Positions 10,176 to 53,200 of a DNA stretch of 64,000 bases are shown here, piece by piece; the stretch's first letter is position 1, and each line of letters begins with the position of its first letter. Position numbers and translations under genes: made by a program. The notes under the pieces were generated by a model. The model did not search any database and was not told the DNA's origin. It worked only from the letters and a program-made list of their open reading frames with translations. Source of the stretch: Eledone cirrhosa (taxonomy: Eukaryota); contig OZ024747.1 in the NCBI GenBank assembly GCA_964016885.1, positions 1,674,001 through 1,738,000 on the forward strand. The letters run 5' to 3'.

Positions 10176-13100
10176 ATGTCTCCATTGATATTGTTGTTGT
10201 TGTTAATGGCTGACAACTGCTGGTGTCTGGATCATATCTATCATGTGAAAGAGAACAATGATATACACAGCTATATTGGAGATATTGTTACTGATACACA
10301 CTTACTGGATAATATAACATCTGGGGATGATAGAAAGAAACTGAGATTTAATGTACTCCAGGATAGTACTGATGAAACTGTTCAGTTATTTAATGTTACA
10401 TCTGGAGGACAACTGTACACAGCTGCCATATTGGATGCTGAAACTCTGTGTCAATATAATGTGGAATGTTTCAGGATATTGGAAATAGCAGTTCAATATA
10501 GCCATTCTTATATGAAGATATTAGAAATCAAAGTTATGATAGAAGATGTCAATGATAATTATCCTGTGTTTCCAAACAAGAAATTTATTCTGCAATTTGA
10601 TGAAAATGTATTGATAGGAACAAGAGAAATAATTCCAAATGCCATTGACAAAGATGTCAGCATTCAGAATTCAAAGATTTCTTATCAACTGAGGAATACC
10701 AGTGAAGATATTTTCCAATTGTCAGTCACAGATATTTCTGCTAAGCAAAGTAATATTGAATTAATTTTGGAAGGAAAGTTAGACAGAGAAAGAAAACAAA
10801 CCCATGTTTTCCAGCTAATTGCCACAGATGGAAGAACTCCACCAATGGAAGGTATAATGGATATAAAAATATTAGTGCGAGATAAAAATGATAATTCTCC
10901 AGTATTCTTACAAAACATCTACAATGTAACTATAGAAGATACACAAAATATGAACAAACCCATTATCACATTATCAGCAAAAGATTTAGATGCAGGGGAT
11001 AATGGAAGGGTTGTATATAGATTTAGTCCTGATATCTCAGAAAAAGTAAAGAAATTCTTTGTTTTAAACCAAACCTCTGGAGAATTGTATATAAAGGATG
11101 AATTTCAGTTTGGAAAAATCTACAAATTGTTTATCGAAGCCAGAGATAATGGTAATCCTTCGAAATTTTCTACTGTCACTGTTCTTATAAATGGTATCAG
11201 CCACTTTAACAATCCACCAAACATTGATGTCACATTTGTCTTAAAGTCAACTGGAAACACAGCTGTCATCTCAGAAGCAACTCTAATTCACAGCTTTGTT
11301 GCTTATGTCAAAGTTACTGACAATGATAATGAAGTTAATGGACAAGTGAAGTGTTATTTAGAAAATAAATACCTTCAGTTAATCTCAATATCTCAGAAGA
11401 AATATAAAGTTGTTGTAAAGAGTAAAATAGATAGAGAGAGTGAGAAGAGTTTTAATTTCACGATTAAATGTCAAGATAAAGGTTTACCTCCATTGAGAGT
11501 AGAGAAAGAGTTTTCTATGTTAGTTACTGATATAAATGATGTGAAACCTAAGTTTAGTGAGGATATATTTAAATTTCTCACCTATGAAAATGAAGATAAA
11601 GACTTCCCTGTTGGATATATCAATGCTACAGACCCAGATCTTGGAGATGGAGGACAATTGATCTATTCTCTTTTAAATAATGGAAAAGATATTCTACCAT
11701 TTCAGATATCAAATCTAGGATTTATTTCTACAACTCAGTCACTAGATAGAGAAGAAAAGAAGATGTATGATTTTAAAGTTTTAGTAAAAGATAAAGGAAG
11801 ACCATCACTAGAGAACACAGCAAATGTTATTGTTGAAGTTATGGATTTAAATGATAATGTTCCATATTTCAGTTTCCCTAATGTTAACCCTTTTAGTCTT
11901 GATGTTCACTACCATCCTCACAGTGAACATGATATCACAGTTATAAGAGCCTCTGATAGAGATAGTCAACATAATGCCTTCCTTACATATGAAATAGTAA
12001 GAGGTAATAAGAAAGAGTTATTTAGAATTAATCCTCACTCTGGTGTCTTATCTTTCTCTCGGTCAGTTTACCAAAATGATGCTGGACTCTATCAACTAGA
12101 ATTAAGTGTAAAAGATAATGGTAGTCCAGTTCTGTCATCAACAACAACTTTATCTTTGACTTTAACAGTTAGTAACAACACATCAAAGATATTTAAGACA
12201 TCTTTAAAGACAACAACATTAAGTAAAGGTCTTCCTTTTAATGTGATAATTATTATTGTTATAGCAACTGTGGTAGTATCAGTTGTTATAGTGATCTCTA
12301 TATCAATCTGTATAGTTCATAGACTAAAGCAGACAGATAGTAACTATAGTAGTGGTAGTAGTGGTGGTGGTGGTAGTGTTGATATGTACCACAAGGTTAC
12401 ACCTACATTAAATATACAGTCAAAATATATCTTTGATCCAACTTGTGTTGATCCTGGAGTACATTATACCATGGGGAGAAATGTGAAGAAATCTCAACCA
12501 ATGATAGACAGAGAAGATATTCACTGCAGAACTCTACCATGTGACAGATGGGGTAATCCAGCTTTCAGACCTCATCAACAGGTAAGATAACTTTAGAATA
12601 ATATCTTATAACTTTGAAACAATTCCATCTATTTCAAGATATTTTAATGATAATTAAATATATTGTTATATAATTTATATAAACCTCATGACAAGGAGCT
12701 GCCACATATGTTCTCATACAACATACTCTTTTATATATATACTCTAAATTTCTCTCATTTAATATTGAAGTAAATACTTTATTGTTAAACTATTGAAAAT
12801 GCATTGGAAAATATATTCAATGATATATCAACCATTGTTTATTTTCTGTCATAACAAATATTTTATGTTAGGACTTTTTTGAAAGTTATAATTATTTCTT
12901 ATAAACAGTGAAAGTGATAATTTCTGTCTTGTAGAGAAGAAAATTCTTCAAATATTTCCTATAAAATAAAGACTATCTATGTAACATTGATTTATCACTT
13001 GAGGTATATTTATACATATTCTAAATAGAGAGATCGTAATGTTTAATTATCTGTAATAAATATTTTCACTGATCCTCAAATCTTCTAAACCACATGCTAT

Positions 13101-13697
13101 TATGTAATCTGGTGTTGATGTCTGTTAGATGAGAAAATATTTTGTAAGAATTAAAATAGTGTTGAGACAATTTATACCAATATTTCTAACTGGAGTCACA
13201 AGAAGAATGTTTTGTTCTGTGACTCTCAATTCTATGTTGTACATGTATCTCATTAACTTTAGATGTTTGTTCCAAGAGAAGAAAGTATGTCTCCAGGTTA
13301 CAGAGAAGTAAACAATACTGACCAATTCAGTGAGATGTCAACATTATCATCTCACACTGATAGTGGTCATGGTTGGAGTGTTGGTAGTGCTGGACATTAT
13401 GAGGAACTGCCAGGTAAGTCTGAAATCTACTATATAAATGTATAACCAGTTGGCACCTACACCAGTGTAGGATATCTTTACAATGGAGGAGGAAAGGGAC
13501 GTTTCAGTGAGAGAGGGGGAAGAGGAGATACTACTACTGTATGTTAAACCCTCCCTCCCACTACTCTCCTTCCTCCTCCCACAACTCAGTCTTCCAAAAC
13601 GAGGCAACAACTTATTAGAAATATACATAAAGAAATTTCAAACAAAGCAGACGACAATCTAATTTTGGTTGACAACTGAACAGATGTCTCTGTATAA

Positions 13698-13754
<57 letters not shown>

Positions 13755-15236
13755 AGCCACTGATATGGATTCTGAACACGTGCACACTCTTAGATCCCAT
13801 TAAGGTCAACTGCAGTAATTGGTGATAAGTTACAAAAAAATGTGATCATCAATGATCTGAAAGTTGGCTTACATTGAGACTTGTCCGAAGAATGAAACCC
13901 AAATTGTATGTTGACGAATATTCGTACTCCCGGCATGTTAATTGTAACATGCCATCTTTGAGAGTAGAATTTATTTTGTTGATATTTCGAGGTGTTGTAT
14001 CATGGGAAGATTAACACGAATTAAGAAGGTGTAACTTCTCCTCCATTATTGACACTTTGCAACAGTGAATGTTACAAGGCCCTCTTTAGAGACAACACTT
14101 CTGATGGTTTATCTGACTTATTATGGTGTGTTTTCTTGGGTTATGTCTACTATAGAGGGAAAACAGGATGGTTTTATTGAATTGCTTCAGTCATTCAAAG
14201 GGCTTTTCAAACGGTGATATACAGGGTGCTTGAACAGTACCTGAATATGTTCACTTGGTTATAATTTCTTCAATAATTGCGATGACTTCCTCAATTGTTC
14301 TGTGTTTGTTCTTGAGTGCTAAGGCAATAAGTTTGATATTCTTATACATAAGTTTGATACTCTTCGAGCTCAAACTTCCCTGGATAATTCACTCTGAATG
14401 AAGAAAGCTGGATGGAAGAAGGACTTATGACTTAAACAGCTATTGATAGATCCACACAAAAATATTGATCTGCCAAAAACACACCTAGCAAAGGCTGCTA
14501 TTCAATCCAGTGTGGGCACCCAGGGTCGCTAGCATTTTGAGGCGCACTCTGGGAACTGCACCTTTTGCGGGTATTACCGGGTACTGCAACTAGTACTCAA
14601 TATTTCTACCAAATGTGGATTTTAATGTATTTTAATATTTCTATTTGTTAAAACATCATTTTACTCCAGTGTAGTTTGTTAGTTGATAACATTCTTTCCA
14701 AGACAAAACATATTCTCTGAAACACATTTTTGATTTTGAAGATTGGCAAAACATTCAGGAAAATTCCTCTCTTTTTCTTATTTATTCTGTTGTTGAGATA
14801 TCGAACCTTTTAACCAGAATGATGTATTTTAAAATTTACTTTCATTTTATTTTGTACAAAATTTGATTCTGTCCCCTAAATCAACCTATTTCCAGATCTG
14901 TGTCGTTATCAAAGTGACAATACATGGAACAGGAGAAATCAACTTCCACACACACTGACAAGATCAAGAGGAGATAACAACATAGGATATCATTATCAAC
15001 CTAATGTTAACACTTCCTGTGATCAGCAGCAAATTCCTTTCACTATAACTGGTACCACATCTAACATAACTGAACAACCATCTACAATGACAAGTGACTT
15101 TACTTCAAAGAGTAAACCACCTCTACCAGCTGTACCTAAAGTAACAACAGTACCAAAGGTACCATCAATACCTCAGGTACCTTCTCTGACTATAGTAAAA
15201 AACTTACATAGCAGCTCTATGGAAACCCTGAATTAA
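10176..15236 (+). CDS. Protocadherin G2, ~965 aa; coding exons 10176-12581, 13263-13413, 14896-15236
   Basis: Same architecture and splice junctions as G1; open spliced frame. Confidence 0.92.
13426..14593 (+). mobile_element. Non-autonomous Helitron (~1.17 kb) in G2 intron 3
   Basis: Starts TCTACTATATAAA, ends CAACTAG, has an imperfect subterminal GGT-ATT-ACC hairpin, and sits between A and T without a TSD. The empty site GAAA|TACTCAAT is present in G1, G3 and G7. Confidence 0.85.
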
Positions 15237-15335
15237 TATTACCATCTCTCAAGCAATCATTAATCCATACATATTGATATATATAATCACTAATAAACTA
15301 TTCCTCTAGATATATATTATAACAACCTTCTACAG

Positions 15336-15691
15336 TTGCAATGACAAGTGACTTTACTTCAAACAGTAAACTAACTCTACCAGCTGTACCTAACAACACT
15401 ATCAAAGGTACCATTAGTACCACAGGTACCTCCTCTATCTACAACAGTAAACTAACTCTACCAGCTGTACCTAACAACACTATCAAAGGTACCATTAGTA
15501 CCTCAGGTACCTCCTCTATCTACAACAGTAAACTAACTCTACCAGCTGTACCTAACAACACTATCAAAGGTACCATTAGTACCTCAGGTACCTCCTCTAT
15601 CTACAACAGTAAACTAACTCTACCAGATGTACCTAACAACACTATCAAAGGTACTATTAGAATCTCAGGTACCTACTATATCTACAACTAA
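15336..15691 (+). repeat. 81-bp minisatellite, 4 units (15362-15685); candidate alternative terminal exon of G2
   Basis: 324 bp = 4 x 81; matches ORF 15341-15691. Confidence 0.88.
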
Positions 15692-17841: not shown

Positions 17842-20800
17842 ATGTCTCCATTGATATTGTTGTTGTTGTTGTTAATGGCTGACAACTGCTGGTGTCTGGA
17901 TCATATCTATCATGTGAAAGAGAACAATGATATACACAGCTATATTGGAGATATTGTTACTGATACACACTTACTGGATAATATAACATCTGGGGATGAT
18001 AGAAAGAAACTGAAATTTAATGTACTCCAGGATAGTACTGATGAAACTGTTCAGTTATTTAATGTTACATCTGGAGGACAACTGTACACAGCTGCCATAT
18101 TGGATGCTGAAACTCTGTGTCAATATAATGTGGAATGTTTCAGGATATTGGAAATAGCAGTTCAATATAGCCATTCTTATATGAAGATATTAGAAATCAA
18201 AGTTATGATAGAAGATGTCAATGATAATTATCCTGTGTTTCCAAACAAGGAATTTACCCTACAATTTGATGAAAATGTATTCACAGGAACAAAGGGGGCT
18301 ATTCCAAATGCTTTTGATAAAGATGTCAGTATTGAGAATTCTGATCTGTCTTATCAACTCAACAAAGATGTCGATATTCCTTTTAAAATCTTTGTTTCTA
18401 ATAAACCAGATGGAACTGATTTTCTACAACTTGTTTTAGAAGATAACTTAGATCGAGAGAAGAAAGATATTTATAATATCCAGTTAATAGCTACAGATGG
18501 AGGATCTCCACCAAAGGATGGTGTACTGGATATAAAAATATTGGTGGAGGACAAAAATGATAATTCCCCTGTATTCTCCCAGGATATCTACAATGTAACT
18601 GTAAATGATAAACACCAGATAAACAAACCTGTTGTAAGGTTGTCAGCTACAGATTTAGATGAAGGAGAAAATGGAAGAATTTCTTATGTCTTTAATAAAG
18701 CTAAAACAACAAATAAGATAAAAGAATCTTTTAAACTGGATGAAATAACTGGAGAATTGTTTCTGAAGGACAACTTTAGTTATGGAAAACTCTATGAGCT
18801 ATTTATTGAAGCCAGAGATAATGGTAAACCACCGATGTCTTCAACAGTTACAGTTCTTATAAATGGTATCAGTCACTTTAACAATCCACCAAACATTGAT
18901 GTCAAGTTTCTCTTAAAGTCAACTGGAAACACAGCTGTCATCTCAGAAGCAATTCTAATTCACAGCTTTGTTGCTTATGTCAAAGTTACTGACAATGATA
19001 GTGAAGTTAATGGACAAGTGAAGTGTTATTTAGAAAATAAATACCTTCAGTTAATCTCAATATCTCAGAAGAAATATAAAGTTGTTGTAAAGAGTAAAAT
19101 AGATAGAGAGAGTGAGAAGAGTTTTAGTTTCACGATTAAATGTCAAGATAAAGGTTTACCTCCATTGAGAGTAGAGAAAGAGTTTTCTATGTTAGTTACT
19201 GATATAAATGATGTGAAACCTAAGTTTAGTGAGGATATATTTAAATTTCTCACCTATGAAAATGAAGATAAAGACTTCCCTGTTGGATATATCAATGCTA
19301 CAGACCCAGATCTTGGAGATGGAGGACAATTGATCTATTCTCTTTTAAATAATGGAAAAGATATTCTACCATTTCAGATATCAAATCTAGGATTTATTTC
19401 TACAACTCAGTCACTAGATAGAGAAGAAAAGAAGATGTATGAGTTTAAAGTTTTAGTAAAAGATAAAGGAAGACCATCACTAGAGAACACAGCAAATGTT
19501 ATTGTTGAAGTTATGGATTTAAATGATAATGTTCCATATTTCAGTTTCCCTAATGTTAACCCTTTTAGTCTTGATGTTCACTACCATCCTCACAGTGAAC
19601 ATGATATCACAGTTATAAGGGCCTCTGATAGAGATAGTCAACATAATGCCTTCCTTACATATGAAATAGTAAGAGGTAATAAGAAAGAGTTATTTAGAAT
19701 TAATCCTCACTCTGGTGTCTTATCTTTCTCTCGGTCAGTTTACCAAAATGATGCTGGACTCTATCAACTAGAATTAAGTGTAAAAGATAATGGTAGTCCA
19801 GTTCTGTCATCAACAACAACTTTATCTTTGACTTTAACAGTTAGTAACAACACATCAAAGATATTTAAGACATCTTTAAAGACAACAACGTTAAGTAAAG
19901 GTCTTCCTTTTAAAGTGATAATTATTATTGTTATAGCAACTGTGGTTGTATCAGTTGTTATAGTGATCTCTATATCAATCTGTATAGTTCATAGACTAAA
20001 GCAGACAGATAGTAACTATAGTAGTGGTAGTAGTAGTGGTGGTGGTAGTGTTGATATGTACCACAAGGTTACACCTACATTAAATATACAGTCAAAATAT
20101 ATCTTTGATCCAACTTGTGTTGATCCCGGAGTACATTATACCATGGGGAGAAATGTGAAGAAATCTCAACCAATGATAGACAGAGAAGATATTCACTGCA
20201 GAACTCTACCAGGTGACAGATGGGGTAATCCAGCTTTCAGACCTCATCAACAGGTAAGATAACTTTAGAATAATATCTTATAACTTGGAAACATGTCTGT
20301 CACTTTTCAAATCATTTATGACATCATCATCATTGTTTTACGTCCACTTTTACCTGTTTGCAAGGGTGGGATCGGTCCTTTCCAGCACAGCATCCCTCCT
20401 TTCTCCTTTCGTCATGGTTCTCGTCAACTCCTCTGTAAGCTTTAGTGATCTGAAGTCAGCTCTCACCACCTTTAGCACACGATTTTCATTGTTTTCCTCT
20501 ACTGCAGCTTCTTTCCTCTGTGATTTCTTGGCATTTCTTTACCCAGCAGTCATCTTCATTGCGTATCGCATTTCCATATCAATGAAGTCTTCTAACCCAC
20601 ACACTACAGCCTATCCCTCTTATACAGTTTCCCTCTCAACTCATCTATGCTTGGTTGTTCACGCATATTGATGTTACACTTCCAATGGAGCATACTTGCT
20701 TCATTTCTCTCCAGACGTTGCATATCCTCCACAGTTGCTGCCCATGTCTCACTACCATGCAGCATGGCGCAGCTCACACAGGCATCATATAACCAGCCTT

Positions 20801-22064: not shown

Positions 22065-22163
22065 TATTACCATCTCTCAAGCAATCATTAATCCATACAT
22101 ATTGATATATATAATCACTAATAAACTATTCCTCTAGATATATATTATAACAACCTTCTACAG

Positions 22164-22843
22164 TTGCAAGGACAAGTGACTTTACTTCAAACAGTAAACT
22201 AACTCTACCAGCTGTACCTAACAACACTATCAAAGGTACCATTAGTACCTCAGGTACCTCCTCTATCTACAACAGTAAACTAACTCTACCAACTGTACCT
22301 AACAACACTATCAAAGGTACCATTAGTACCTCAGGTACCTCCTCTATCTACAACAGTAAACTAGCTCTACCAGCTGTACCTAACAACACTATCAAAGGTA
22401 CCATTAGTACCTCAGGTACCTCCTCTATCTACAACAGTAAACTAACTCTACCAACTGTACCTAACAACACTATCAAAGGTACCATTAGTACCTCAGGTAC
22501 CTCCTCTATCTACAACAGTAAACCAGCACTACCAGCTGTACCTAACAACACTATCAAAGGTACCATTAGTACCTCAGGTACCTCCTCTATCTACAACAGT
22601 AAACTAACTCTACCAGCTGTACCTAACAACACTATCAAAGGTACCATTAGTACCTCAGGTACCTCCTCTATCTACAACAGTAAACTATCTCTACCAGCTG
22701 TACCTAACAACACTATCAAAGGTACCATTAGTACCTCAGGTACCTCCTCTATCTACAACAGTAAACTAACTCTACCAGTTGTACCTAACAACACTATTAA
22801 AGGTACCATTAGAATCTCAGGTACCTCCTCTATCTACATCTAA
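22164..22843 (+). repeat. 81-bp minisatellite, 8 units (22190-22837); candidate alternative terminal exon of G3
   Basis: 648 bp = 8 x 81; frame open from CTACAG|TT GCA AGG to TAA at 22841-22843. Confidence 0.88.
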
Positions 22844-25183: not shown

Positions 25184-28100
25184 ATGTCTCCATTGATATT
25201 GTTGTTGTTGTTAATGGCTGACAACTGCTGGTGTCTGGATCATATCTATCATGTGAAAGAGAACAATGATATACACAGCTATATTGGAGATATTGTTACT
25301 GATACACACTTACTGGATAATATAACATCTGGGGATGATAGAAAGAAACTGAAATTTAATGTACTCCAGGATAGTACTGATGAAACTGTTCAGTTATTTA
25401 ATGTTACATCTGGAGGACAACTGTACACAGCTGCCATATTGGATGCTGAAACTCTGTGTCAATATAATGTGGAATGTTTCAGGATATTGGAAATAGCAGT
25501 TCAATATAGCCATTCTTATATGAAGATATTAGAAATCAAAGTTATGATAGAAGATGTCAATGATAATTACCCTGTGTTTCCAAACAAGGAATTTCATCTA
25601 CAATTTCATGAAAGTGTGGCAAAAGGCAGAAAAGAAATAATTCCAAATGCTTTTGATAAAGATGTTAGTATTCAGAATTCTAAACTGTCAATATACCTTT
25701 TCAGTTGACTTCTCAGCAATCAGAAGGAAGTGATTTATTACTTGTTTTAAAAGATAACTTAGATCGAGAGAAGAAAGACATTTATAATATCCAGTTAATA
25801 GCTACAGATGGAGGATCTCCACCAAAGGAAGGTGTACTGGATATAGAAATAACAGTCCGAGACATAAATGATAATTCCCCTGTATTTTCCCAGGATATAT
25901 ACAATGTAACTGTAAATGATAAACACCAGATAAACAAACCTGTTGTAAGATTGTCAGCTACAGATTTAGATGAAGGAGAAAATGGAAGAATTTCTTACTT
26001 ATTTAGCGATAAAACACAAAATAAGATAAAAGAATCCTTTAAACTGGATGAAATAACTGGAGAATTGTTTCTGAAGGACAAATTTAGTTTTAGTAAAATC
26101 TATACATTGTTTATTGAAGCCAGAGATAATGGTAATCCCTCAAAAACATCAACAGTCACAGTTCTTATAAATGGTATCAGCCACTTTAACAATCCACCAA
26201 ACATTGATGTCAAGTTTGTCTTAAAGTCAACTGGAAACACAGCTGTCATCTCAGAAGCAACTCTAATTCACAGCTTTGTTGCTTATGTCAAAGTTACTGA
26301 CAATGATAATGAAGTTAATGGACAAGTGAAGTGTTATTTAGAAAATAAATACCTTCAGTTAATCTCAATATCTCAGAAGAAATATAAAGTTGTTGTAAAG
26401 AGTAAAATAGATAGAGAGAGTGAGAAGAGTTTTAATTTCACGATTAAATGTCAAGATAAAGGTTTACCTCCATTGAGAGTAGAGAAAGAGTTTTCTATGT
26501 TAGTTACTGATATAAATGATGTGAAACCTAAGTTTAGTGAGGATATATTTAAATTTCTCACCTATGAAAATGAAGATAAAGACTTCCCTGTTGGATATAT
26601 CAATGCTACAGACCCAGATCTTGGAGATGGAGGACAATTGATCTATTCTCTTTTAAATAATGGAAAAGACATTCTACCATTTCAGATATCAAATCTAGGA
26701 TTTATTTCTACAACTCAGTCACTAGATAGAGAAGAAAAGAAGATGTATGAGTTTAAAGTTTTAGTAAAAGATAAAGGAAGACCATCACTAGAGAACACAG
26801 CAAATGTTATTGTTGAAGTTATGGATTTAAATGATAATGTTCCATATTTCAGTTTCCCTAATGTTAACCCTTTTAATCTTGATGTTCACTACCATCCTCA
26901 CAGTGAACATGATATCACAGTTATAAGAGCCTCTGATAGAGATGGTCAACATAATGCCTTCCTTACATATGAAATAGTAAGAGGTAATAAGAAAGAGTTA
27001 TTTAGAATTAATCCTCACTCTGGTGTCTTATCTTTCTCTCGGTCAGTTTACCAAAATGATGCTGGACTCTATCAACTAGAATTAAGTGTAAAAGATAATG
27101 GTAGTCCAGTTCTGTCATCAACAACAACTTTATCTTTGACTTTAACAGTTAGTAACAACACATCAAAGATATTTAAGACATCTTTAAAGACAACAACGTT
27201 AAGTAAAGGTCTTCCTTTTAATGTGATAATTATTATTGTTATAGCAACTGTGGTAGTATCAGTTGTTATAGTGATCTCTATATCAATCTGTATAGTTCAT
27301 AGACTAAAGCAGACAGATAGTAACTATAGTAGTGGTGGTGGTGGTGGTGGTAGTGTTGATATGTACCACAAGGTTACACCTACATTAAATATACAGTCAC
27401 AATATATCTTTGATCCAACTTGTGTTGATCCTGGAGTACATTATACCATGGGGAGAAATGTGAAGAAATCTCAACCAATGATAGACAGAGAAGATATTCA
27501 CTGCAGAACTCTGCCATGTGACAGATGGGGTAATCCAGCTTTCAGACCTCATCAACAGGTAAGATAACTTTAGAATAATATCTTATACCTTTGAAACATC
27601 TCTGTCTATTTTCACATGATTTAGTAATTTCTTTCAAATATATTGTTTTTAATTTTATATAAAACTATCTAATGACAAGGAGATATCAAATATGTTGCCA
27701 TACTTCATGATGTTTTATGTATATAATCTAAACTTTATCATTCAATATTATAGGAACTGTTTTATTGTGATAAATTATTTCAGGGTTTCTTTTGAAGTTT
27801 ATAATTTATCTAAAAGAACCATCCATTTAAGTGATAATGTTTTCTGTCATCTAGAGAAGCACATTCTTGAAATGTTTGCAATAACGTAAAAATTAATGTA
27901 ACACATAGCTGGGTGTGTATCTATCTATATTTTAAATAATCAGATTGTATATTGATTAAATTATAATATGATTTGTAATAAATATTTTCACTGATCCTCA
28001 AATCTTCCAAACCACATGCTATTATGTAATCTGGTGTTGATGTCTGTTAGATGAGAAAATATTTTGTAAGAATTAAAATAGTGTTGAGACAATTTATACC

Positions 28101-30282: not shown

Positions 30283-30719
30283 TTGCAAGGACAAGTGACT
30301 TTACTTCAAACAGTAAACTAGCTCTACCAGCTGTACCTAACAACACTATCAAAGGTACCATTAGTACCTCAGGTACCTCCTCTATCTACAACAGTAAACT
30401 AACTCTACCAACTGTACCTAACAACACTAACAAAGGTACCATTAGTACCTCAGGTACCTCCTCTATCTACAACAGTAAACCAGCACTACCAGCTGTACCT
30501 AACAACACTATCAAAGGTACCATTAGTACCTCAGGTACCTCCTCTATCTACAACAGTAAACCAGCACTACCAGCTGTACCTAACAACACTATCAAAGGTA
30601 CCATTAGTACCTCAGGTACCTCCTCTATCTACAACAGTAAACTAACTCTACCAGCTGTACCTAACAACACTATCAAAGGTACCATTAGAATGTCAGGTAC
30701 CTCCTCTATCTACAACTAA
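30283..30719 (+). repeat. 81-bp minisatellite, 5 units (30309-30713); candidate alternative terminal exon of G4
   Basis: 405 bp = 5 x 81; frame open to TAA at 30717-30719. Confidence 0.88.
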
Positions 30720-33061: not shown

Positions 33062-36000
33062 ATGTCTCCATTGATATTGTTGTTGTTGTTAATGGCTGAC
33101 AACTGCTGGTGTCTGGATCATATCTATCATGTGAAAGAGAACAATGATATACACAGCTATATTGGAGATATTGTTACTGATACACACTTACTGGATAATA
33201 TAACATCTGGGGATGATAGAAAGAAACTGAGATTTAATGTACTCCAGGATAGTACTGATGAAACTGTTCAGTTATTTAATGTTACATCTGGAGGACAACT
33301 GTACACAGCTGCCATATTGGATGCTGAAACTCTGTGTCAATATAATGTGGAATGTTTCAGGATATTGGAAATAGCAGTTCAATATAGCCATTCTTATATG
33401 AAGATATTAGAAATCAAAGTTATGATAGAAGATGTCAATGATAATTATCCTGTGTTTCCAAACAAGGAATTTCATCTACAATTTCATGAAAGTGTGGCAA
33501 AAGGCAGAAAAGAAATAATTCCAAATGCCTTTGACAAAGATGTCAGTACTGAGAATTCAAAGATTTCTTATTATCTAGAAAATTCAAATATTCCTTTTAA
33601 AATCTTTGTTTCCAATAAACCTGATGGAACTGATTTTCTCCAACTTGTTTTAGAAGATAACTTAGATCGAGAGAAGAAAGACATTTATAATATCCAGTTA
33701 ATAGCTACAGATGGAGGATCTCCACCAAAGGAAGGTGTACTGGATATAGAAATATTGGTGGAGGACATAAATGATAATTCCCCTGTATTTTCCCAGGATA
33801 TCTACAATGTAACTGTAAATGATAAACACCAGATAAACAAACCTGTTGTAAGATTGTCAGCTACAGATTTAGATGAAGGAGAAAATGGAAGAATTTTTTA
33901 CATATTTAGTGATAAAACACCAAATAAGGTAAAACAGTGTTATAAATTGCATGAAACCACTGGAGAATTGTTTGTGAAGGACAAATTTGAATTTGGAAAA
34001 ATCTATACATTGTTTGTTGAAGCCAGAGATAATGGTAAACCACCGATGTCTTCAACAGTCACAGTTCTTATAAATGGTATCAGTCACTTTAACAATCCAC
34101 CAAATATTGATGTCAAGTTTCTCTTAAAGTCAACTGGAAACACAGCTGTCATTTCAGAAGCAACTCTAATTCACAGCTTTGTTGCTTATGTCAAAGTTAC
34201 TGACAATGATAATGAAGTTAATGGACAAGTGAAGTGTTATTTAGAAAATAAATACCTTCAGTTAATCTCAATATCTCAGAAGAAATATAAAGTTGTTGTA
34301 AAGAGTAAAATAGATAGAGAGAGTGAGAAGAGTTTTAATTTCACGATTAAATGTCAAGATAAAGGTTTACCTCCATTGAGAGTAGAGAAAGAGTTTTCTA
34401 TGTTAGTTACTGATATAAATGATGTGAAACCTAAGTTTAGTGAGGATATATTTAAATTTCTCACCTATGAAAATGAAGATAAAGACTTCCCTGTTGGATA
34501 TATCAATGCTACAGACCCAGATCTTGGAGATGGAGGACAATTGAGCTATTCTCTTTTAAATAATGGAAAAGATATTCTACCATTTCAGATATCAAATCTA
34601 GGATTTATTTCTACAACTCAGTCACTAGATAGAGAAGAAAAGAAGATGTATGAGTTTAAAGTTTTAGTAAAAGATAAAGGAAGACCATCACTAGAGAACA
34701 CAGCAAATGTTATTGTTGAAGTTATGGATTTAAATGATAATGTTCCATATTTCAGTTTCCCTAATGTTAACCCTTTTAGTTTTGATGTTCACTACCATCC
34801 TAACAGTGAACATGATATCACAGTTATAAGGGCCTCTGATAGAGATAGTCAACATAATGCCTTCCTTACATATGAAATAGTAAGAGGTAATAAGAAAGAG
34901 TTATTTAGAATTAATCCTCACTCTGGTGTCTTATCTTTCTCTCGGTCAGTTTACCAAAATGATGCTGGACTCTATCAACTAGAATTAAGTGTAAAAGATA
35001 ATGGTAGTCCAGTTCTGTCATCAACAACAACTTTATCTTTGACTTTAACAGTTAGTAACAACACATCAAAGATATTTAAGACATCTTTAAAGACAACAAC
35101 ATTAAGTAAAGGTCTTCCTTTTAATGTGATAATTATTATTGTTATAGCAACTGTGGTAGTATCAGTTGTTATAGTGATCTCTATATCAATCTGTATAGTT
35201 CATAGACTAAAGCAGACAGATAGTAACTATAGTAGTGGTAGTAGTAGTAGTGGTGGTGGTAGTGTTGATATGTACCACAAGGTTACACCTACATTAAATA
35301 TACAGTCAAAATATATCTTTGATCCAACTTGTGTTGATCCTGGAGTACATTATACCATGGGGAGAAATGTGAAGAAATCTCAACCAATGATAGACAGAGA
35401 AGATATTCACTGCAGAACTCTACCAGGTAACAGATGGGGTAATCCAGCTTTCAGACCTCATCAACAGGTAAGATAACTTTAGAATAATATCTTATAACTT
35501 TGAAACAATTCCATCTATTTCAAGATATTTTAATGACAATTAAATATATTGTTATATAATTTATATAAACCTCATGACAAGGAGCTGCCACATATGTTCT
35601 CATACAACATACTCTTTTATATATATACTCTAAATTTCTCTCATTTAATATTGAAGTAAATACTTTATTGTTAAACTATTGAAAATGCATTGGAAAATAT
35701 ATTCAATGATATATCAACCATTGTTTATTTTCTGTCATAACAAATATTGTATGTTAGGGCTTTTTTGAAAGTTATAATTATTTCTTATAAACAGTGAAAG
35801 TGATGATTTCTGTCTTGTAGAGAAGAAAATTCTTCAAATATTTCCTATAAAATAAAGACTATCTATGTAACATTGATTTATCACTTGAGGTATATTTATA
35901 CATATTCTAAATAGAGAGATCGTAATGTTTAATTATCTGTAATAAATATTTTCACTGATCCTCAAATCTTCTAAACCACATGCTATTATGTAATCTGGTG

Positions 36001-36593: not shown

Positions 36594-36659
<66 letters not shown>

Positions 36660-38241: not shown

Positions 38242-39568
38242 TTGCAAGGACAAGTGACTTTACTTCAAACAGTAAACTATCTCTACCAACTGTACCTAAC
38301 AACACTGTCAAAGGTACCATTAGTACCTCAGGTACCTCCTCTATCTACAACAGTAAACCAGCACTACCAGCTGTACCTAACAACACTATCAAAGGTACCA
38401 TTAGTACCTCAGGTACCTCCTCTATCTACAACAGTAAACTAACTCTACCAACTGTACCTAACAACACTATCAAAGGTACCATTAGTACCTCAGGTACCTC
38501 CTCTATCTACAACAGTAAACCAGCACTACCAGCTGTACCTAACAACACTATCAAAGGTACCATTAGTACCTCAGGTACCTCCTCTATCTACAACAGTAAA
38601 CTAGCTCTACCAACTGTACCTAACAACACTATCAAAGGTACCATTAGTACCACAGGTACGTCCTCTATCTACAACAGTAAACTATCTCTACCAACTGTAC
38701 CTAACAACACTATCAAAGGTACCATTAGTACCACAGGTACCTCCTCCATCTACAACAGTAAACTAACTCTACCAGTTGTACCTAACAACACTATCAAAGG
38801 TACCATTAGTACCACAGGTACCTCCTCTATCTACAACAGTAAACTAGCTCTACCAGCTGTACCTAACAACACTATCAAAGGTACCATTAGAATCTCAGGT
38901 ACCTCCTCTATCTACAACAGTAAACTAACTCTACCAGCTGTACCTAACAACACTATCAAAGGTACCATTAGTACCACAGGTACCTCCTCTATCTACAACA
39001 GTAAACTAGCTCTACCAGCTGTACCTAACAACACTATCAAAGGTACCATTAGAATCTCAGGTACCTCCTCTATCTACAACAGTAAACTAACTCTACCAGC
39101 TGTACCTAACAACACTATCAAAGGTACCATTAGTACCTCAGGTAACCTCCTATCTACAACAGTAAACTAGCTCTACCAGCTGTACCTAACAACACTATCA
39201 AAGGTACCATTAGAATCTCAGGTACCTCCTCTATCTACAACAGTAAACTAGCTCTACCAGCTGTACCTAACAACACTATCAAAGGTACCATTAGTACCTC
39301 AGGTACCTCCTCTATCTACAACAGTAAACTAGCTCTACCAACTGTACCTAACAACACTAACAAAGGTACCATTAGTACCTCAGGTACCTCCTCTATCTAC
39401 AACAGTAAACTAGCTCTACCAGCTGTACCTAACAACACTATCAAAGGTACCATTAGAATCTCAGGTACCTCCTCTATCTACAACAGTAAACTAGCTCTAC
39501 CAGATGTACCTAACAACACTATCAAAGGTACCATTAGAATCTCAGGTACCTACTATATCTACAAATAA
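38242..39568 (+). repeat. 81-bp minisatellite, 16 units (38268-39562), unit 11 one base short; candidate alternative terminal exon of G5
   Basis: 1295 bp = 16 x 81 - 1; GGTAACCTCCTATC at 39141 replaces GGTACCTCCTCTATC. Confidence 0.88.
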
Positions 39569-41906: not shown

Positions 41907-44900
41907 ATGTCTCCATTGATATTGTTGTTGTTGTTAATGGCTGACAACTGCTGGTGTCTGGATCATATCTATCATGTGAAAGAGAACAATGATATACACA
42001 GCTATATTGGAGATATTGTTACTGATACACACTTACTGGATAATATAACATCTGGGGATGATAGAAAGAAACTGAGATTTAATGTACTCCAGGATAGTAC
42101 TGATGAAACTGTTCAGTTATTTAATGTTACATCTGGAGGACAACTGTACACAGCTGCCATATTGGATGCTGAAACTCTGTGTCAATATAATGTGGAATGT
42201 TTCAGGATATTGGAAATAGCAGTTCAATATAGCCATTCTTATATGAAGATATTAGAAATCAAAGTTATGATAGAAGATGTCAATGATAATTACCCTGTGT
42301 TTCCAAACAAGGAGTTTATTCTGCAATTTGATGAAAGTGATTCCAAAGGTTCCAAAGAAATAATTCCAAATGCCATTGACAAAGATGTCAGCATTCAGAA
42401 TTCAAAGATTTCTTATCAACTGAGGAATACCAGTGAAGATATTTTCCAATTGTCAGTCACAGATATTTCTGCTAAGCAAAGTAATATTGAATTAATTTTG
42501 GAAGGAAAGTTAGACAGAGAGAGAAAACAAACTCATGTTTTCCAGCTAATTGCCACAGATGGAAGAACTCCACCAATGGAAGGTATAATGGATATAAAAA
42601 TATTAGTGCGAGATAAAAATGATAATTCTCCAGTATTCTTACAAAACAACTACAATGTAACTATAGAAGATACACAAAATATGAACAAACCCATTATCAT
42701 ATTATCAGCAACAGATTTAGATGCAGGGGATAATGGAAGGGTTGTATATAGTTTTAGTCCTGATATCTCAGGAAAAGTAAAGAAATTCTTTGTTTTAAAC
42801 CAAACCTCTGGAGAATTGTATATAAAGGATGAATTTCAGTTTGGAAAAATCTATACATTGTTTATCGAAGCCAGAGATAATGGTAATCCTTCGAAATTTT
42901 CTACTGTCACTGTTCTTATAAATGGTATCAGCCACTTTAACAATCCACCAAACATTGATGTCAAGTTTCTCTTAAAGTCAACTGGAAACACAGCTGTCAT
43001 CTCAGAAGCAACTCTAATTCACAGCTTTGTTGCTTATGTCAAAGTTACTGACAATGATAATGAAGTTAATGGACAAGTGAAGTGTTATTTAGAAAATAAA
43101 TACCTTCAGTTAATCTCAATATCTCAGAAGAAATATAAAGTTGTTGTAAAGAGTAAAATAGATAGAGAGAGTGAGAAGAGTTTTAATTTCACGATTAAAT
43201 GTCAAGATAAAGGTTTACCTCCATTGAGAGTAGAGAAAGAGTTTTCTATGTTAGTTACTGATATAAATGATGTGAAACCTAAGTTTAGTGAGGATATATT
43301 TAAATTTCTCACCTATGAAAATGAAGATAAAGACTTCCCTGTTGGATATATCAATGCTACAGACCCAGATCTTGGAGATGGAGGACAATTGATCTATTCT
43401 CTTTTAAATAATGGAAAAGATATTCTACCATTTCAGATATCAAATCTGGGATTTATTTCTACAACTCAGTCACTAGATAGAGAAGAAAAGAAGATGTATG
43501 AGTTTAAAGTTTTAGTAAAAGATAAAGGAAGACCACCACTAGAGAACACAGCAAATGTTATTGTTGAAGTTATGGATTTAAATGATAATGTTCCATATTT
43601 CAGTTTCCCTAATGTTAACCCTTTTAGTTTTGATGTTCACTACCATCCTCACAGTGAACATGATATCACAGTTATAAGGGCCTCTGATAGAGATAGTCAA
43701 CATAATGCCTTCCTTACATATGAAATAGTAAGAGGTAATAAGAAAGAGTTATTTAGAATTAATCCTCACTCTGGTGTCTTATCTTTCTCTCGGTCAGTTT
43801 ACCAAAATGATGCTGGACTCTATCAACTAGAATTAAGTGTAAAAGATAATGGTAGTCCAGTTCTGTCATCAACAACAACTTTATCTTTGACTTTAACAGT
43901 TAGTAACAACACATCAAAGATATTTAAGACATCTTTAAAGACAACAACATTAAGTAAAGGTCTTCCTTTTAAAGTGATAATTATTATTGTTATAGCAACT
44001 GTGGTAGTATCAGTTGTTATAGTGATCTCTATATCAATCTGTATAGTTCATAGACTAAAGCAGACAGATAGTAACTATAGTAGTGGTAGTAGTAGTAGTG
44101 GTGGTGGTAGTGTTGATATGTACCACAAGGTTACACCTACATTAAATATACAGTCAAAATATATCTTTGATCCAAGTTGTGTTGATCCTGGAGTACATTA
44201 TACCATGGGGAGAAATGTGAAGAAATCTCAACCAATGATAGACAGAGAAGATATTCACTGCAGAACTCTACCAGGTGACAGATGGGGTAATCCAGCTTTC
44301 AGACCTCATCAACAGGTAAGATAACTTTAGAATAATATCTTATAACTTTGAAACATGTCTGTCACTTTTCAAATCATTTCTAATATATAGTTGTATATTT
44401 TGTATAACCCTATATCACAACAAGGAGAGTTAAACATAATTTGTCATATATTTTACAGTTTTATACTAAATATTTATTGCAAAATATATCAATAATTGTA
44501 AATTTTCTCCCAACAGATATTTTTGGATTTATTTTGAAATTAATAATTAAATGAATGGAATATTTCAAGTGCTAGTTAAGTTTTCTGCCATGTTAAGAAG
44601 CAATTTCTTGAAATGTATTTCTAACTAGAGTCACAAGAAGAATGTTTTGTTCTGTGACTCTCAATTCTATGTTGTACATGTATCTCATTAACTTTAGATG
44701 TTTGTTCCAAGAGAAGAAAGTATGTCTCCAGGTTACAGAGAACTAAACAATACTGACCAATTCAGTGAGATGTCAACATTATCATCTCACACTGATAGTG
44801 GTCATGGTTGGAGTGTTGGTAGTGCTGGACATTATGAGGAACTGCCAGGTAAGTCTGAATTACCATATATCTCCTATCCATATAATTATTAGTGTATTTT

Positions 44901-47799: not shown

Positions 47800-48870
47800 T
47801 TTGTTGAAGTCATCTCACTTGATGACAAGAATTTTCTGTAGACATTTGGTGTCAAAATCATCTTTTGTCTGGTCTTCACACTCTACATTTCACACCCATA
47901 TAGGAGTGTTGAAAGTACATTGCTGTTGTAAATCTTATCTTGGTTCCAAGTGAAAGTGTTTTGCTTCTCCAGATCTTGTTGAGTTGCTTAAAGATAGCCA
48001 AAGCCTTTTCTATTTTGTTGATAGATCTTCTGAGGTAGGTGAAGTCATACATCAGCCCCACATCCTCCTAGTTGATGAAGACATTTGGTCTTGATGGAAA
48101 TATACCAGCTAGTATGTTCTTGGTCTTTTTGACATTGATGTGGGGACTGGCATTAGCTGCAGATGACCTTATCCCATCTATCAAACACTGCAAGTCAGAT
48201 GTATGGCCACAATATCATCTGCAAAGTCAAGGTCTGAGAGCTTCTGTACCTCTAACCAGTCAATTCTTCTTACCTTCTGTTGCCGTTTTGAGAATCTAGT
48301 CGATGACCAAATCAAAGAGAGTCAGAGACGGTCGGCATCCTTGGCAAAACTCCTGTGATGACATCAAACCACTCATTATAACCATCCTCAGTTCTTATGC
48401 AACATTTTGAACCAGTATTTAAATCCTTGATGGCTGAAGCAACCTTAGATGGTATGTCTTATAAGCTCACATGTTCCCCCCTAAGGATGGTCTGTGTAGG
48501 CTTTAGTAAAGACAATGAATGGTTTGGCAAATGGTACTTGGAATTCATTTTATTTCTTGATGTGTTGTAGAGTAGATATTTGATCAGCCCAGGTGTGTTT
48601 GGGTTGGAACTTGTTGCTCACACAAGACATGATTGCCTGCCTCATTCATTAGATTCAGGATAACTTGGCAGTACACCTTTCCTAATATGGATAGAAGTGT
48701 TGCTCCCGTCAAGTTGTCACATTCTGTAAGATTACCTCTTTGGGAGATGCAGGCAACTGCTCTAATTTTCTGGTACCTCACCTGTATTCCATGCCTGGTT
48801 ATATAACTGTCATATCCATCTGTTGACACATTCCTCTCTGCCTTTGAGCATCTCTGTAGTGATGACATTC
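47800..48870 (-). mobile_element. Decayed LINE (RTE-like) reverse-transcriptase region in G7 intron 1
   Basis: Minus strand shows LDFADDI (~48210-48232), GC...LFDLVID, FKQLNKIWRSKTLSLGTKIR and TLLSILGKVY, with stops and frameshifts. Boundaries approximate. Confidence 0.75.
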
Positions 48871-49714
48871 CTACCTAGTGACATATTGTTATGCTGGAAA
48901 CTAAATCAGAGTTGGCAAGTTTGGATGACTAGAAACTGCCTACTCCAAGATGTTTCAATGTTCTGTAGTTGAAGTAGTGGAAACTACCAAAATTATTGAT
49001 ATTGACCAACAAAGAAACAAGTCTGTTAATTTATATGGTGATTACTTGCCATGGAATGAGATAACAGGAATATACAAAAGTTAAAAATAACAATGTTTAC
49101 TTTATATATTAGTACAATACAGAGTTTAAAGAATAGAATATTTTTGTTGATATACTGTTATTTAGTGGAAGTAGAAGGAAGATATATTATTGAGAGACTG
49201 AATAAAAGAGTAAAAGAGTTAATGCAGAGATTCACTGGAGAAAAAATATAGTTTTGATGTCTGGCTTTATTAGCCTGTGATATTTTAGTGTTGAAGTTAA
49301 AATATGGTAAAAAGGGAATGGTGTATGATAGAAATGAGGTTCTAAGTATTTGTAACTGAAGAAGGTATATATACTAACAAAATGTTGGTAATTGATGAAA
49401 GACCAGCTACATCTATAAAAGAACCACCATATGTTTTTATCTGTTGAAATTTATGATTAATAGACAGATGAGAGGAACTTAGAAAGTTATCCTCAGATAC
49501 AAAACCTTGGCTAAATGTTGGGAATAGATTGCATTCAACTAAAGCCACCCAGGTACACTGTAGTGGTCTGTATTTTATTATATGCCAGATCTTACACTAG
49601 AGGTCTACTGGTAAAACAAACCTTGAACAATACCAGATTTAAAACAAGCGTGACTGAAGGAGTTGAAATTTTAAGACAGACCAAATGAATAAAATGGTGG
49701 TATTTTCCATTAAA

Positions 49715-50055
49715 GACGTCATAATTATCATTTTACGTCCACCTTTTCCTGCTTGCAAGGGTGGGACGGGTCCTATTCAGCACAGCATCTCTCCACTCAT
49801 CACGGTCCTTTGTCATCTCCGTGATCTGAGGTCTGCTCTCACCCCCTACACCCATGTTTCTCCTGGTCTTCCTCTACTGTGTCTTCCTTCTACTGGGATT
49901 TCTTGGCACTTTTCCCAGCGACATCCTCCAATCACATCACATATCCATACCATCGCAGTCTTCTCTCCCGCACACTACAAGTTATCCCTCTTAAACACAG
50001 TTTCTCTCTCAACACATCTATGCTTGGTCGTTCATGGACATCCAATGGAGCATGC
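49715..50055 (-). mobile_element. RTE LINE 3' fragment in G7 intron 1
   Basis: CCTGCTTGCAAGGGTGGGA and downstream sequence match the RTE 3' end at 5757-6130. Confidence 0.75.
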
Positions 50056-50223
50056 ATACAAATATATATTTCAGATAATAAGATATACACTCTCTACTGT
50101 TCTGCTTATTTTACAACTATCTGAAACTTCCAGTGTATTGGGAGAAATTGGAGGCAGTTTTACATATATCTTTTTTTTTTTTTTTTCAGATAACTTGACT
50201 AAATACCAAGGAAGACCGTAGAC

Positions 50224-53200
50224 ATGTTGTCCATTGTTTTGTTATTGTTAATGGCTGACAACTGCTGGTGTCTGGATCATATCTATCATGTGAAAGAGAA
50301 CAATGATATACACAGCTATATTGGAGATATTGTTACTGATACACACTTACTGGATAATATAACATCTGGGGATGATAGAAAGAAACTGAGATTTAATGTA
50401 CTCCAGGATAGTACTGATGAAACTGTTCAGTTATTTAATGTTACATCTGGAGGACAACTGTACACAGCTGCCATATTGGATGCTGAAACTCTGTGTCAAT
50501 ATAATGTGGAATGTTTCAGGATATTGGAAATAGCAGTTCAATATAGCCATTCTTATATGAAGATATTAGAAATCAAAGTTATGATAGAAGATGTCAATGA
50601 TAATTATCCTGTGTTTCCAAACATGGAATTTCATTTACAATTTGATGAAGATGATTTAATAGGAACAAAGGGGGCTATTTCAAATGCTTTTGATAAAGAT
50701 GTCAGTATTAAAAACTCAAAGATTTCTTATCAACTAAAAAATAACAGTGAAAATTCTTTCAAATTATCTGTTCAAAGAATTTCTGACAGGCAAAGTAATA
50801 TTGAATTACTATTAGAAAGAAATTTAGACAGAGAGACAAAGGAATCCCATATTCTTCAAATAATAGCAACAGATGAGGGATCTCCACCAAAAGAGACTGA
50901 ATTAATTATTCTTATTACAGTCAAGGATCTAAATGATAATTCTCCAGTATTCTCACCAAATATCTACAATGTAACTGTAGAAGATACACAAAATAAGAAC
51001 AAACCCATTATCACATTATCAGCAACAGATTTAGATGCAGGGGATAATGGAAGGGTTGTATATAGTTTTAGTCCTGACATCTCAGAAAAAGTAAAGAAAT
51101 TCTTTGTTTTAAACCAAACCTCTGGAGAATTGTATATAAAGGATGAATTTCAGTTTGGAAAAATCTACAGATTGTTTATCGAAGCCAGAGATAATGGTAA
51201 TCCTTCGAAATTTTCTACTGTCACTGTTCTTATAAATGGTATCAGCCACTTTAACAATCCACCAAACATTGATGTCAAGTTTCTCTTAAAGTCAACTGGA
51301 AACACAGCTGTCATCTCAGAAGCAACTCTAAGTCACAGCTTTGTTGCTTATGTCAAAGTTACTGACAATGATAATGAAGTTAATGGACAAGTGAAGTGTT
51401 ATTTAGAAAATAAATACCTTCAGTTAATCTCAATATCTCAGAAGAAATATAAAGTTGTTGTAAAGAGTAAAATAGATAGAGAGAGTGAGAAGAGTTTTAA
51501 TTTCACGATTAAATGTCAAGATAAAGGTTTACCTCCATTGAGAGTAGAGAAAGAGTTTTCTATGTTAGTTACTGATATAAATGATGTGAAACCTAAGTTT
51601 AGTGAGGATATATTTAAATTTCTCACCTATGAAAATGAAGATAAAGACTTCCCTGTTGGATATATCAATGCTACAGACCCAGATATTGGAGATGGAGGAC
51701 AATTGATCTATTCTCTTTTAAATAATGGAAAAGATATTCTACCATTTCAGATATCAAATCTGGGATTTATTTCTACAACTCAGTCACTAGATAGAGAAGA
51801 AAAGAAGATGTATGAGTTTAAAGTTTTAGTAAAAGATAAAGGAAGACCACCACTAGAGAACACAGCAAATGTTATTGTTGAAGTTATGGATTTAAATGAT
51901 AATGTTCCATATTTCAGTTTCCCTAATGTTAACCCTTTTAGTTTTGATGTTCACTACCATCCTCACAGTGAACATGATATCACAGTTATAAGGGCCTCTG
52001 ATAGAGATAGTCAACATAATGCCTTCCTTACATATGAAATAGTAAGAGGTAATAAGAAAGAGTTATTTAGAATTAATCCTCACTCTGGTGTCTTATCTTT
52101 CTCTCGGTCAGTTTACCAAAATGATGCTGGACTCTATCAACTAGAATTAAGTGTAAAAGATAATGGTAGTCCAGTTCTGTCATCAACAACAACTTTATCT
52201 TTGACTTTAACAGTTAGTAACAACACATCAAAGATATTTAAGACATCTTTAAAGACAACAACATTAAGTAAAGGTCTTCCTTTTAAAGTGATAATTATTA
52301 TTGTTATAGCAACTGTGGTAGTATCAGTTGTTATAGTGATCTCTATATCAATCTGTATAGTTCATAGACTAAAGCAGACAGATAGTAACTATAGTAGTGG
52401 TAGTAGTAGTAGTGGTGGTGGTAGTGTTGATATGTACCACAAGGTTACACCTACATTAAATATACAGTCACAATATATCTTTGATCCAACTTGTGTTGAT
52501 CCTGGAGTACATTATACCATGGGGAGAAATGTGAAGAAATCTCAACCAATGATAGACAGAGAAGATATTCACTGCAGAACTCTACCAGGTGACAGATGGG
52601 GTAATCCAGCTTTCAGACCTCATCAACAGGTAAGATAACTTTAAAATAATATCTTATAACTTTGAAACATGTCTGTCACTTTTCAAATCATTTCTAATAT
52701 ATAGTTGTATATTTTATATAACCCTATATCATGACAAGGAGAGTTAAACATAATTTGTCATGTATTTTACAGTTTTATACTAAAATATTCAGTGTTGAAT
52801 TACTAAATATTTATTGCAAATTATATTCAAAATATATCAATAATTGTAAATTTTCTGCCAACAGATATTTTTGGATTTATTTTGAAATTAATAATTAAAT
52901 GAATGGAATATTTCAACTGCTAGTTAAGAAGCAATTTCTTGAAATGTATTTCTAACTAGAGTCACAAGAAGAATGTTTTGTTCTGTGACTCTCAAATCTA
53001 TGTTGTACATGTCTCTCATTAACTTTAGATGTTTGTTCCAAGAGAAGAAAGTATGTCTCCAGGTTACAGAGAACTAAACAATACTGACCAATTCAGTGAG
53101 ATGTCAACATTATCATCTCACACTGATAGTGGTCATGGTTGGAGTGTTGGTAGTGCTGGACATTATGAGGAACTGCCAGGTAAGTCTGAAATACTCAATA

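Follow-up and report, generated by a model that had tools for sequence, protein, structure and literature searches.

How can neighbouring genes be nearly identical along most of their coding length and still differ sharply in two adjacent domains? A protocadherin array of the octopod Eledone cirrhosa raises this question. We analysed a window of 64,000 nucleotides (GCA_964016885.1, OZ024747.1, 1,674,001 to 1,738,000, forward strand), in which the original prediction, covering 10575..51225, had described EC2-EC3 as a patchwork of short blocks swapped among paralogs. The array comprises ten head-to-tail genes, all on the same strand, and spans about 73 kb; the window holds seven of them (G1-G7) and three more lie upstream (Ua, Ub and Uc). 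Frames are intact in 9 of the 10 copies, the exception being G4, and six of the seven window genes have a single open frame of 811-829 amino acids. One large exon encodes a protocadherin-type EC1, more cadherin repeats, a membrane segment and the start of the tail, and a Pfam scan of two proteins returned Cadherin_2, Cadherin (five stretches) and a sixth cadherin-like match in both. The seven best matches over EC2-3 were Octopus proteins at 63-69% identity. By domain architecture, tandem layout and octopod closest relatives, these genes belong to the coleoid clustered protocadherins.

EC1 and the region from EC4 to the tail are about 99% identical among array genes (98-100%), and array units are 92-98% identical across kilobases of non-coding DNA. 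Synonymous divergence (dS) is 0.012-0.014 in the flanks vs 0.8-0.95 between types of EC2-3 core, a roughly 70-fold difference. Three core types are present, with all window genes on the + strand. Type A, whose members are mutually 87-95% identical, includes G3 (17875..20259, variable island 18235-18861), G4 (25214..27564, with a frameshift in EC2), G5 (33092..35473, with EC2 and EC3 blocks of its own) and the core of Ub; type B includes G1, whose large coding exon runs from a MADNCWC motif over 3306..5696, outside the range first described; type C is found in G2 (10206..12587) and G6 (41937..44321). G7 (50251..52635) has its own EC2 core, followed from about 50950 by an EC3 of the G2/G6 type. 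In cross-species trees built with 18 and 14 of 120 listed homologs and with G4 omitted, monophyly of the array in EC2-3 was rejected (p-AU 1e-61): O. vulgaris P0003 and O. bimaculoides P0006 clustered with Uc and G1 (100/99), O. sinensis P0018 and O. bimaculoides P0019 with G2, G6 and G7 (100/99). All array members formed a single group, separate from every outside sequence, in EC1 and EC4-6 (support 100). Three old lineages make up the EC2-3 core, and two of these cluster with genes from other octopus species. Downstream non-coding DNA falls into the types (Uc, G1, G3), (G2, G5, partly G4 and Ua) and (Ub, G6, G7), which cut across the core types.

Within EC2-3, block sharing was exactly as described: each of six peptide blocks and an 18-nt motif occurred in the named window genes and in no other window gene. 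The FHESV.. block is common to G4 and G5; GTKGAI, with its DNA motif, to G3 and G7; IPFKIF.. and NGKPPM.. to G3 and G5; DNLDRE.. to G3, G4 and G5; and NKIKES.. to G3 and G4. Shared blocks of 18-75 nt differ by 0-4 nt and contain private substitutions. The near-identity of G2 and G6 past the start of EC2 also held (12 of 60 nt differ at the start, followed by 2 of 270 and 7 of 294), as did the combination in G7 of a G2/G6-type EC3 with a unique EC2 (compared with G2, 77 of 270 nt differ across the remainder of EC2 and 9 of 294 across EC3). Scrambling is strongest in a 21-residue cassette that opens EC2, located at 10572..10634 in G2, 18241..18303 in G3 (residues 123-143), 33458-33520 in G5 and 42303-42365 in G6, where it is unlike that of G2.

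Genes that are otherwise 65-71% identical share tracts of 19-66 nt, synonymous codons included. Tracts with 0-2 differences between paralogs comprise 19 nt identical between G3 (18285-18303) and G7 (50661-50679), 36 of 36 nt between G2 (10587-10622) and Ub, 60 of 60 nt between G4 (25574..25633) and G5 (33452-33511), and 64 of 66 nt between the leader and cassette of G7 (50638-50703) and Ua. The EC3 F-G loop block of G3 (18808..18852) is common to G5 (one difference in 48 columns) and absent from G4. Discordantly shared tracts range from 19 nt up to whole domains. Shared synonymous variants accompany the shared blocks, with at least one such codon in 12 of 13 tract comparisons.

Recombination in EC2-EC3 was significant using our own implementations of PHI and of a GENECONV-like run test. 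PHI gave z = -15.9 for the ten genes (258 sites), z = -10.8 for the seven window genes, z = -6.6 at third positions and p = 0.026 for codons with an invariant amino acid (synonymous-only, 40 sites), and the run test flagged 11 among 45 pairs (Bonferroni <0.05); the EC4-to-end region gave no PHI signal (15 sites, p = 0.64). The expectation that no single tree would fit applied clearly to one segment. With segments delimited after the alignment had been inspected, the opening 75 nt of EC2 rejected the overall tree (AU p = 4e-6); the other five segments gave p = 0.13, 0.076, 0.048, 0.21 and 0.072 for that tree, and all of them rejected the tree of the first segment (p <= 8e-7). Lineages were crossed at 24 of 26 informative sites over the initial 90 bases of EC2 vs 46 of 230 in the core (Fisher p = 2e-13, with sites non-independent). 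Smaller clusters beside the EC2/EC3 linker (7 of 10 sites) and towards the EC3 end, around the F strand (8 of 19 sites), are suggestive only. Tested for motif anchoring, lineage-crossing sites lay 39.5 nt from an invariant run vs 47.2 nt (p = 0.069). Conversion or unequal exchange among paralogs, as originally proposed, is supported by the tests and the discordant tracts; its chief effect is the homogenised EC1 and EC4-tail. The patchwork is uneven, with scrambling mostly at the 5' edge of EC2-3. That edge position could come from tract mechanics alone.

We consider it highly probable that germline conversion and unequal exchange between neighbours, with an EC2-3 core that resists overwriting, produced this tandem array of about 99% identical flanks, three old EC2-3 lineages and a scrambled 5' edge; with one assembly, conversion and double crossover are inseparable. 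Exchanges would begin in the near-identical flanks, enter the island and stop at varying points, and successive nested tracts could yield the fine mosaic with which EC2 begins. Exchanges may also begin inside the island among the A-type genes. Divergence of the island is probably kept by selection against losing distinct binding surfaces, with low homology helping.

In vertebrate clustered protocadherins, homophilic specificity arises through antiparallel EC2:EC3 contacts. The cassette is predicted to form the first EC2 strand, a loop and the next strand, and, placed by sequence mapping to gammaB2 only, it would lie on the surface by which the vertebrate counterparts choose their partners. By analogy with the vertebrate EC2:EC3 contacts, new combinations of cassette and core might change binding partners. 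A homodimer prediction for EC1-4 of G3 scored 0.00 in both of two runs, with the alignment unused, and carries no weight either way.

Three other sub-arrays (K1-K3, 60 genes) share this organization: identity is lowest in EC2-3, PHI gives z = -10.8, -6.3 and -6.8, and the cassette is again weakly linked to the rest of EC2-3, although in K2 it is not the least-linked bin (rho 0.38; other bins 0.09-0.48). No cassette 20-mers are shared between this array and the other three (0 of 180 pairs per comparison) or among those three (0 of 400 pairs per comparison). In an alignment, other octopods have protein-level versions of the same cassette motifs beside different cores.

What the cassette mosaic does is a separate matter. 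We put slightly less than even credence in the reading that exchange is real and the mosaic neutral, with tracts leaking from EC1 and stopping at random in residues that have no effect on binding. This reading invokes the same mechanism as the germline exchange favoured above and differs on function. The cassette does adjoin homogenised EC1, and the weaker mixed zone at the EC3 end fits such leakage. Cassette pN/pS is 0.44-0.64 in the four arrays, exceeding the rest of EC2 in three of four and always below 1, although pS is high, synonymous sites are partly saturated and these are averages without a site model. The EC3 F-G loop is the expected partner of the cassette. A lock-and-key linkage between the two was absent in all four arrays (Mantel r = 0.04, 0.03, 0.14 and -0.05, none significant; near-duplicate or outlier rows, numbering 3, 3 and 2, had been removed from K1-K3), as neutrality would have it. 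Against it, cassette pS in K1-K3 (0.56, 0.36 and 0.63) is above that of the rest of EC2 (0.36, 0.25 and 0.28) even though the flank adjoins, and therefore the cassette resists homogenisation; moreover, 9 of 9, 18 of 20, 17 of 20 and 19 of 20 genes have distinct cassette proteins. A bolder proposal, which we regard as doubtful, is that octopods have a 21-codon hypervariable cassette, bounded by two calcium-binding motifs, with its diversity kept by selection and swapped in the germline among paralogs independently of the ancient EC2-3 cores; each swap would create a new recognition identity, and MHC-like recombination would renew a neuronal identity code and leave individuals with different repertoires.

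The mosaics are very unlikely to be assembly chimeras from merged reads of 99%-identical units. Flanks this similar invite such errors, and just downstream the assembly is imperfect, where a 4969-nt stretch recurs at 100% identity ahead of a 200-N gap. G4 is the gene for which public reads were checked, at its 22-nt deletion junction (25689..25690). There, a 145-nt public contig matches 25636-25780 without differences, with 54 and 91 letters flanking the deletion, and an 80-nt contig over 25571-25650 was found in three of four public runs; the deletion was bridged in one of the four, all from one study that may represent the source animal. Contig cover over G4 has holes, to which we gave no weight. 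Chimeras also fit poorly with the private substitutions in shared blocks, with tracts of 19-36 nt that are much shorter than a read, and with the recurrence of the cassette motifs beside different cores in other octopods. Nor did a search of the assembly find a donor for the block that follows the G4 junction (best matches 81-84%) or for the G7 EC2 core (best other match 79%). The frameshifted G4 is likely a pseudogene or a null allele.

Still less probable is that recent duplicates diverged fast in EC2-3 under positive selection and that shared blocks reflect convergence at a few tolerant surface sites. The unit identity across non-coding DNA is what recent duplication would leave, PHI turns borderline (p = 0.051) when restricted to the five A-type genes, and some scattered lineage-crossing core sites may be homoplasy. 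Synonymous divergence equals or exceeds replacement divergence, however, and averaged dN/dS in EC2-3 (0.30-0.45) gave no sign of positive selection; cores cluster across species, identical runs of 36 and 60 nt carry shared synonymous codons, and non-coding DNA is reassorted too. The least probable reading, programmed somatic conversion in neurons in the style of chicken immunoglobulins, found no support beyond the frameshifted G4 as a possible donor, and it faces intact frames in nearly every copy, and therefore no single recipient with pseudogene donors, as well as old cross-species cores and private substitutions that need germline time; nothing points to somatic shuffling, on which the original prediction rightly withheld judgement.

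Regional conversion in clustered protocadherins is described in the available text of studies on fugu (PMC1852091) and on Xenopus and mouse (PMC4978886), both citing Noonan 2004. These two studies hold that EC2-3 seldom or never undergoes conversion. As in those vertebrate genes, octopod paralogs are homogenised outside EC2-EC3 with a dS peak in EC2 or EC3, phylogenetic signal lies in EC2-3, and converted regions group by species. Unlike them, the octopod genes arose when whole genes expanded independently in cephalopods, homogenisation of EC1 is as complete as that of EC4-6, and EC2-3 recombines internally, chiefly in the cassette and at the EC2/EC3 switch of G7; the core is largely spared across lineages, as is vertebrate EC2-3, and the cassette is not. 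GC3 is raised in converted regions of fugu (PMC1852091), whereas this array has no such rise in EC4-6 (0.229, vs 0.218-0.235 in EC2-3; EC1, 0.291).

Coleoid sub-arrays of closely related head-to-tail genes, like those here, were described by Albertin 2022 (PMC9068888), Styfhals 2019 (PMC6339937) and the gold-ringed octopus genome (PMC9795677). The first two suggest duplication plus conversion homogenising protocadherin arrays; the third dates a burst to 8-14 Ma from paralog distances, and the word 'conversion' is absent from its available text. Domain-level analysis, cross-species EC2-3 lineages and an intra-domain mosaic are absent from the available text of these accounts. We found no domain-level conversion account for cephalopod protocadherins in the literature as available; other papers or supplements may already cover some of what is seen here. 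Regional conversion as such is established for vertebrate protocadherins and has been proposed for those of cephalopods. A review (PMC3924837), in its available text, treats divergence peaks under conversion, as in red/green opsins and RHD/RHCE, together with haplotypes that conversion has built in MHC, self-incompatibility and R genes. The array resembles these systems in having, within converted duplicates, a divergent island whose grouping follows paralogs across species, in short tracts that make new combinations and in a broken copy that has tracts in common with intact copies; unlike in those systems, the octopod variants are paralogs in one assembly. Of the MHC likeness originally drawn, short tracts copied between paralogs are seen here, and averaged dN/dS shows no sign of selection for new combinations.

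If this account is true, octopods and vertebrates independently reached a homogenised scaffold with diverse EC2-3, and the pattern would be indirect evidence for EC2-3 recognition in cephalopod protocadherins. Flanks look about 99% young and cores predate the split from other octopus species; whole-gene distances can therefore mistake conversion for recent duplication when cephalopod protocadherin expansions are dated. The array also provides natural swap pairs: G2 and G6 have the same core and different cassettes, G4 and G5 the same cassette and different EC3 F-G loops, and G7 and G6 the same EC3 and different EC2.

The window carries seven protocadherin exons (G1–G7), head-to-tail on the + strand. 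A search of the same genome added three further genes just upstream of the window (Ua, Ub and Uc) and found no array gene in the 38 kb retrieved on the downstream side, a stretch that includes a 200-N gap. Among public sequences, the best relatives are protocadherins from octopods, with 63–69% identity over EC2-3. Among the ten array genes, identity is 98.1–100% in EC1 and 98.7–99.7% from EC4 to the end, but just 65–97% in the 630-nt stretch coding for EC2 and EC3. By its EC2-3 core, each gene belongs to one of three lineages: A (Ua, Ub, G3, G4 and G5), B (Uc and G1) or C (G2, G6 and G7).

The original prediction held that short blocks in EC2-EC3 had been swapped among paralogs. All of its blocks were found in the genes named, with 0–4 nucleotide differences, and one of them, GTKGAI, was extended to the upstream gene Ua. 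Using our own scripts rather than the published programs, we detected recombination in EC2-EC3 by PHI in all ten genes (z −15.9), in the seven window genes (z −10.8), at third positions (z −6.6) and at purely synonymous sites (p 0.026, n=40 sites); the five A-type genes alone gave p 0.051, and EC4 to the end gave no PHI signal. In a GENECONV-style run test, 11 of 45 pairs fell below 0.05 after Bonferroni correction. The EC2-EC3 mosaic is a real and statistically solid feature. The predicted patchwork of discordant blocks is thus present, but it is uneven and concentrated within the opening 90 nt of EC2. There, within-lineage divergence equals between-lineage divergence, and 24 of 26 informative sites cross lineages, compared with 46 of 230 core sites. 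The first 75 nt of EC2 reject the overall tree (AU p 4e-6) and the remaining five segments give p 0.048–0.21, with segments chosen once the alignment had been viewed. Tracts are identical between Ub and G2 (36/36 nt), G4 and G5 (60/60 nt) and G3 and G7 (19/19 nt), and nearly so between Ua and G7 (64/66 nt). Exchange within the core involves mostly A-type genes, plus a switch in G7, which has its own EC2 (77/270 differences from G2) followed by a C-type EC3 (9/294).

Between lineages, the EC2 core has a dS of 0.95 and EC3 one of 0.82, compared with 0.014 in EC1 and 0.012 in EC4-6; dN/dS is ~0.33. We built protein trees with 18 of the 120 homologs listed, excluding G4 and removing two rows from the EC1 tree and one from the EC4-6 tree for short cover. 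The array forms one group in the EC1 and EC4-6 trees, and in the latter the closer outside genes likewise group by species. In the EC2-3 tree, lineage B joins O. vulgaris P0003 and O. bimaculoides P0006, lineage C joins O. sinensis P0018 and O. bimaculoides P0019, and a single array clade is rejected (p-AU 1e-61, 14 outside rows). Old cores lie between overwritten flanks. Downstream non-coding DNA is of three types that are discordant with the core lineages, a reassortment that protein selection cannot produce. Given this discordance and the contrast between flank and core, exchange spans ~20 nt up to whole islands (the divergent EC2-EC3 stretches) or units, and homogenisation is its main effect. 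Mosaics created by chimeric assembly are unlikely, because the shared blocks contain private substitutions, some blocks have no donor in the assembly and the same pattern recurs in further arrays.

These further arrays are three sub-arrays on another contig of the same genome (K1–K3), from each of which 20 matches were taken, 60 in all out of the 150 listed. In all three, median identity is lowest in EC2 and EC3 and PHI is significant. In K1 and K3, divergence is highest in the bin made up of the first 30 residues of EC2, which ties for highest in K2. This bin also shows the weakest linkage to the remainder in the window array, K1 and K3 (rho 0.10, 0.03 and 0.18), but not in K2 (rho 0.38). The 21-codon cassette that starts EC2 (G3 residues 123–143) has high synonymous divergence and almost one protein variant per gene, and therefore resists homogenisation despite adjoining EC1. 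This resistance hints at, short of proving, selection for difference; pN/pS in the cassette is 0.44–0.64. Elsewhere in the genome, the neighbouring gene pairs L018/L020 and L019/L021 (contig C2, 239.44–239.48 Mb) are near-identical throughout EC2-3, which suggests a very recent two-gene duplication. The EC2 of two K3 genes (L063 and L070) resembles that of the K1 outlier genes L011 and L012, a likeness that hints at an old lineage common to both sub-arrays.

In a confident predicted structure of G3 EC1-4 (mean pLDDT 90.6), the cassette comprises the first two strands of EC2 and the loop that joins them. Aligned by sequence to the mouse gammaB2 chain, it corresponds to residues 104–124, and the NGKPPM block to 293–298. 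EC2/EC3 is described as the seat of specificity (Nicoludis 2016, PMC5001838), with an EC2:EC3 specificity pair at residues 111 and 294 (Goodman 2016, PMC5106212); the pair is given in gammaB7 numbering, from which gammaB2 positions may differ by one or two residues. In a dimer of the vertebrate type, the two edges with the most exchange would thus lie opposite one another; that octopod proteins bind in this way is our inference. In none of the four arrays examined does the cassette co-vary with the NGKPPM block, which argues against a simple lock-and-key fit between the two.

In vertebrate clustered protocadherins, regional conversion that spares EC2-3 is established (PMC1852091, PMC4978886), general theory covers both divergence peaks under conversion and haplotypes made by conversion (PMC3924837), and conversion has been suggested for coleoid arrays, in one sentence apiece (PMC9068888, PMC6339937). 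Full-text searches of the literature, covering accessible main texts, returned no account for cephalopods at the domain or intra-domain level. The mechanism itself is known, and in this lineage it was previously just suggested; the decoupled EC2 cassette is the sharper element and gives ready-made swap experiments.

Units also differ outside the coding islands. An 81-bp tandem repeat lies in each unit upstream of G1–G6 (1–207, 7631–7823, 15362–15688, 22190–22838, 30309–30716 and 38268–39564) in 2.4 to 16 copies, differences that unequal exchange would give; in two units the 27-codon frame of the repeat is open. Ua and G7, which begin and end the array, share a leader absent from the other eight, with a splice-acceptor-like site and signal-peptide start unlike those of the inner genes (50190–50250 in G7; locus L004, 1900–1971, in Ua), and the upstream DNA of each is its own. 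Upstream of its MADNCWC codon, G1 has only ~165 nt in common with other genes within the proximal kilobase; similarity picks up again further up. The stretch concerned (1006–3140) was probably inserted or replaced.

A 22-nt deletion at 25689/25690 shifts the reading frame of G4. Judged against G3, two copies of a 4-nt word flank the deleted piece, which suggests a microhomology deletion. A public contig spanning the deletion matches 25636–25780 with 0 differences; it occurs in one of four runs, all from a single study and possibly from the source animal. The ~5.3 kb following G7 (53362–58621) recurs at 100% identity past a 2.7-kb AT repeat (59037–61705), at 61710–64000 and on into the adjoining locus (L007:1–4969). 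This second copy stops at a 200-N gap (C7:1740970–1741169), and the repeat may be a false duplication introduced during assembly.
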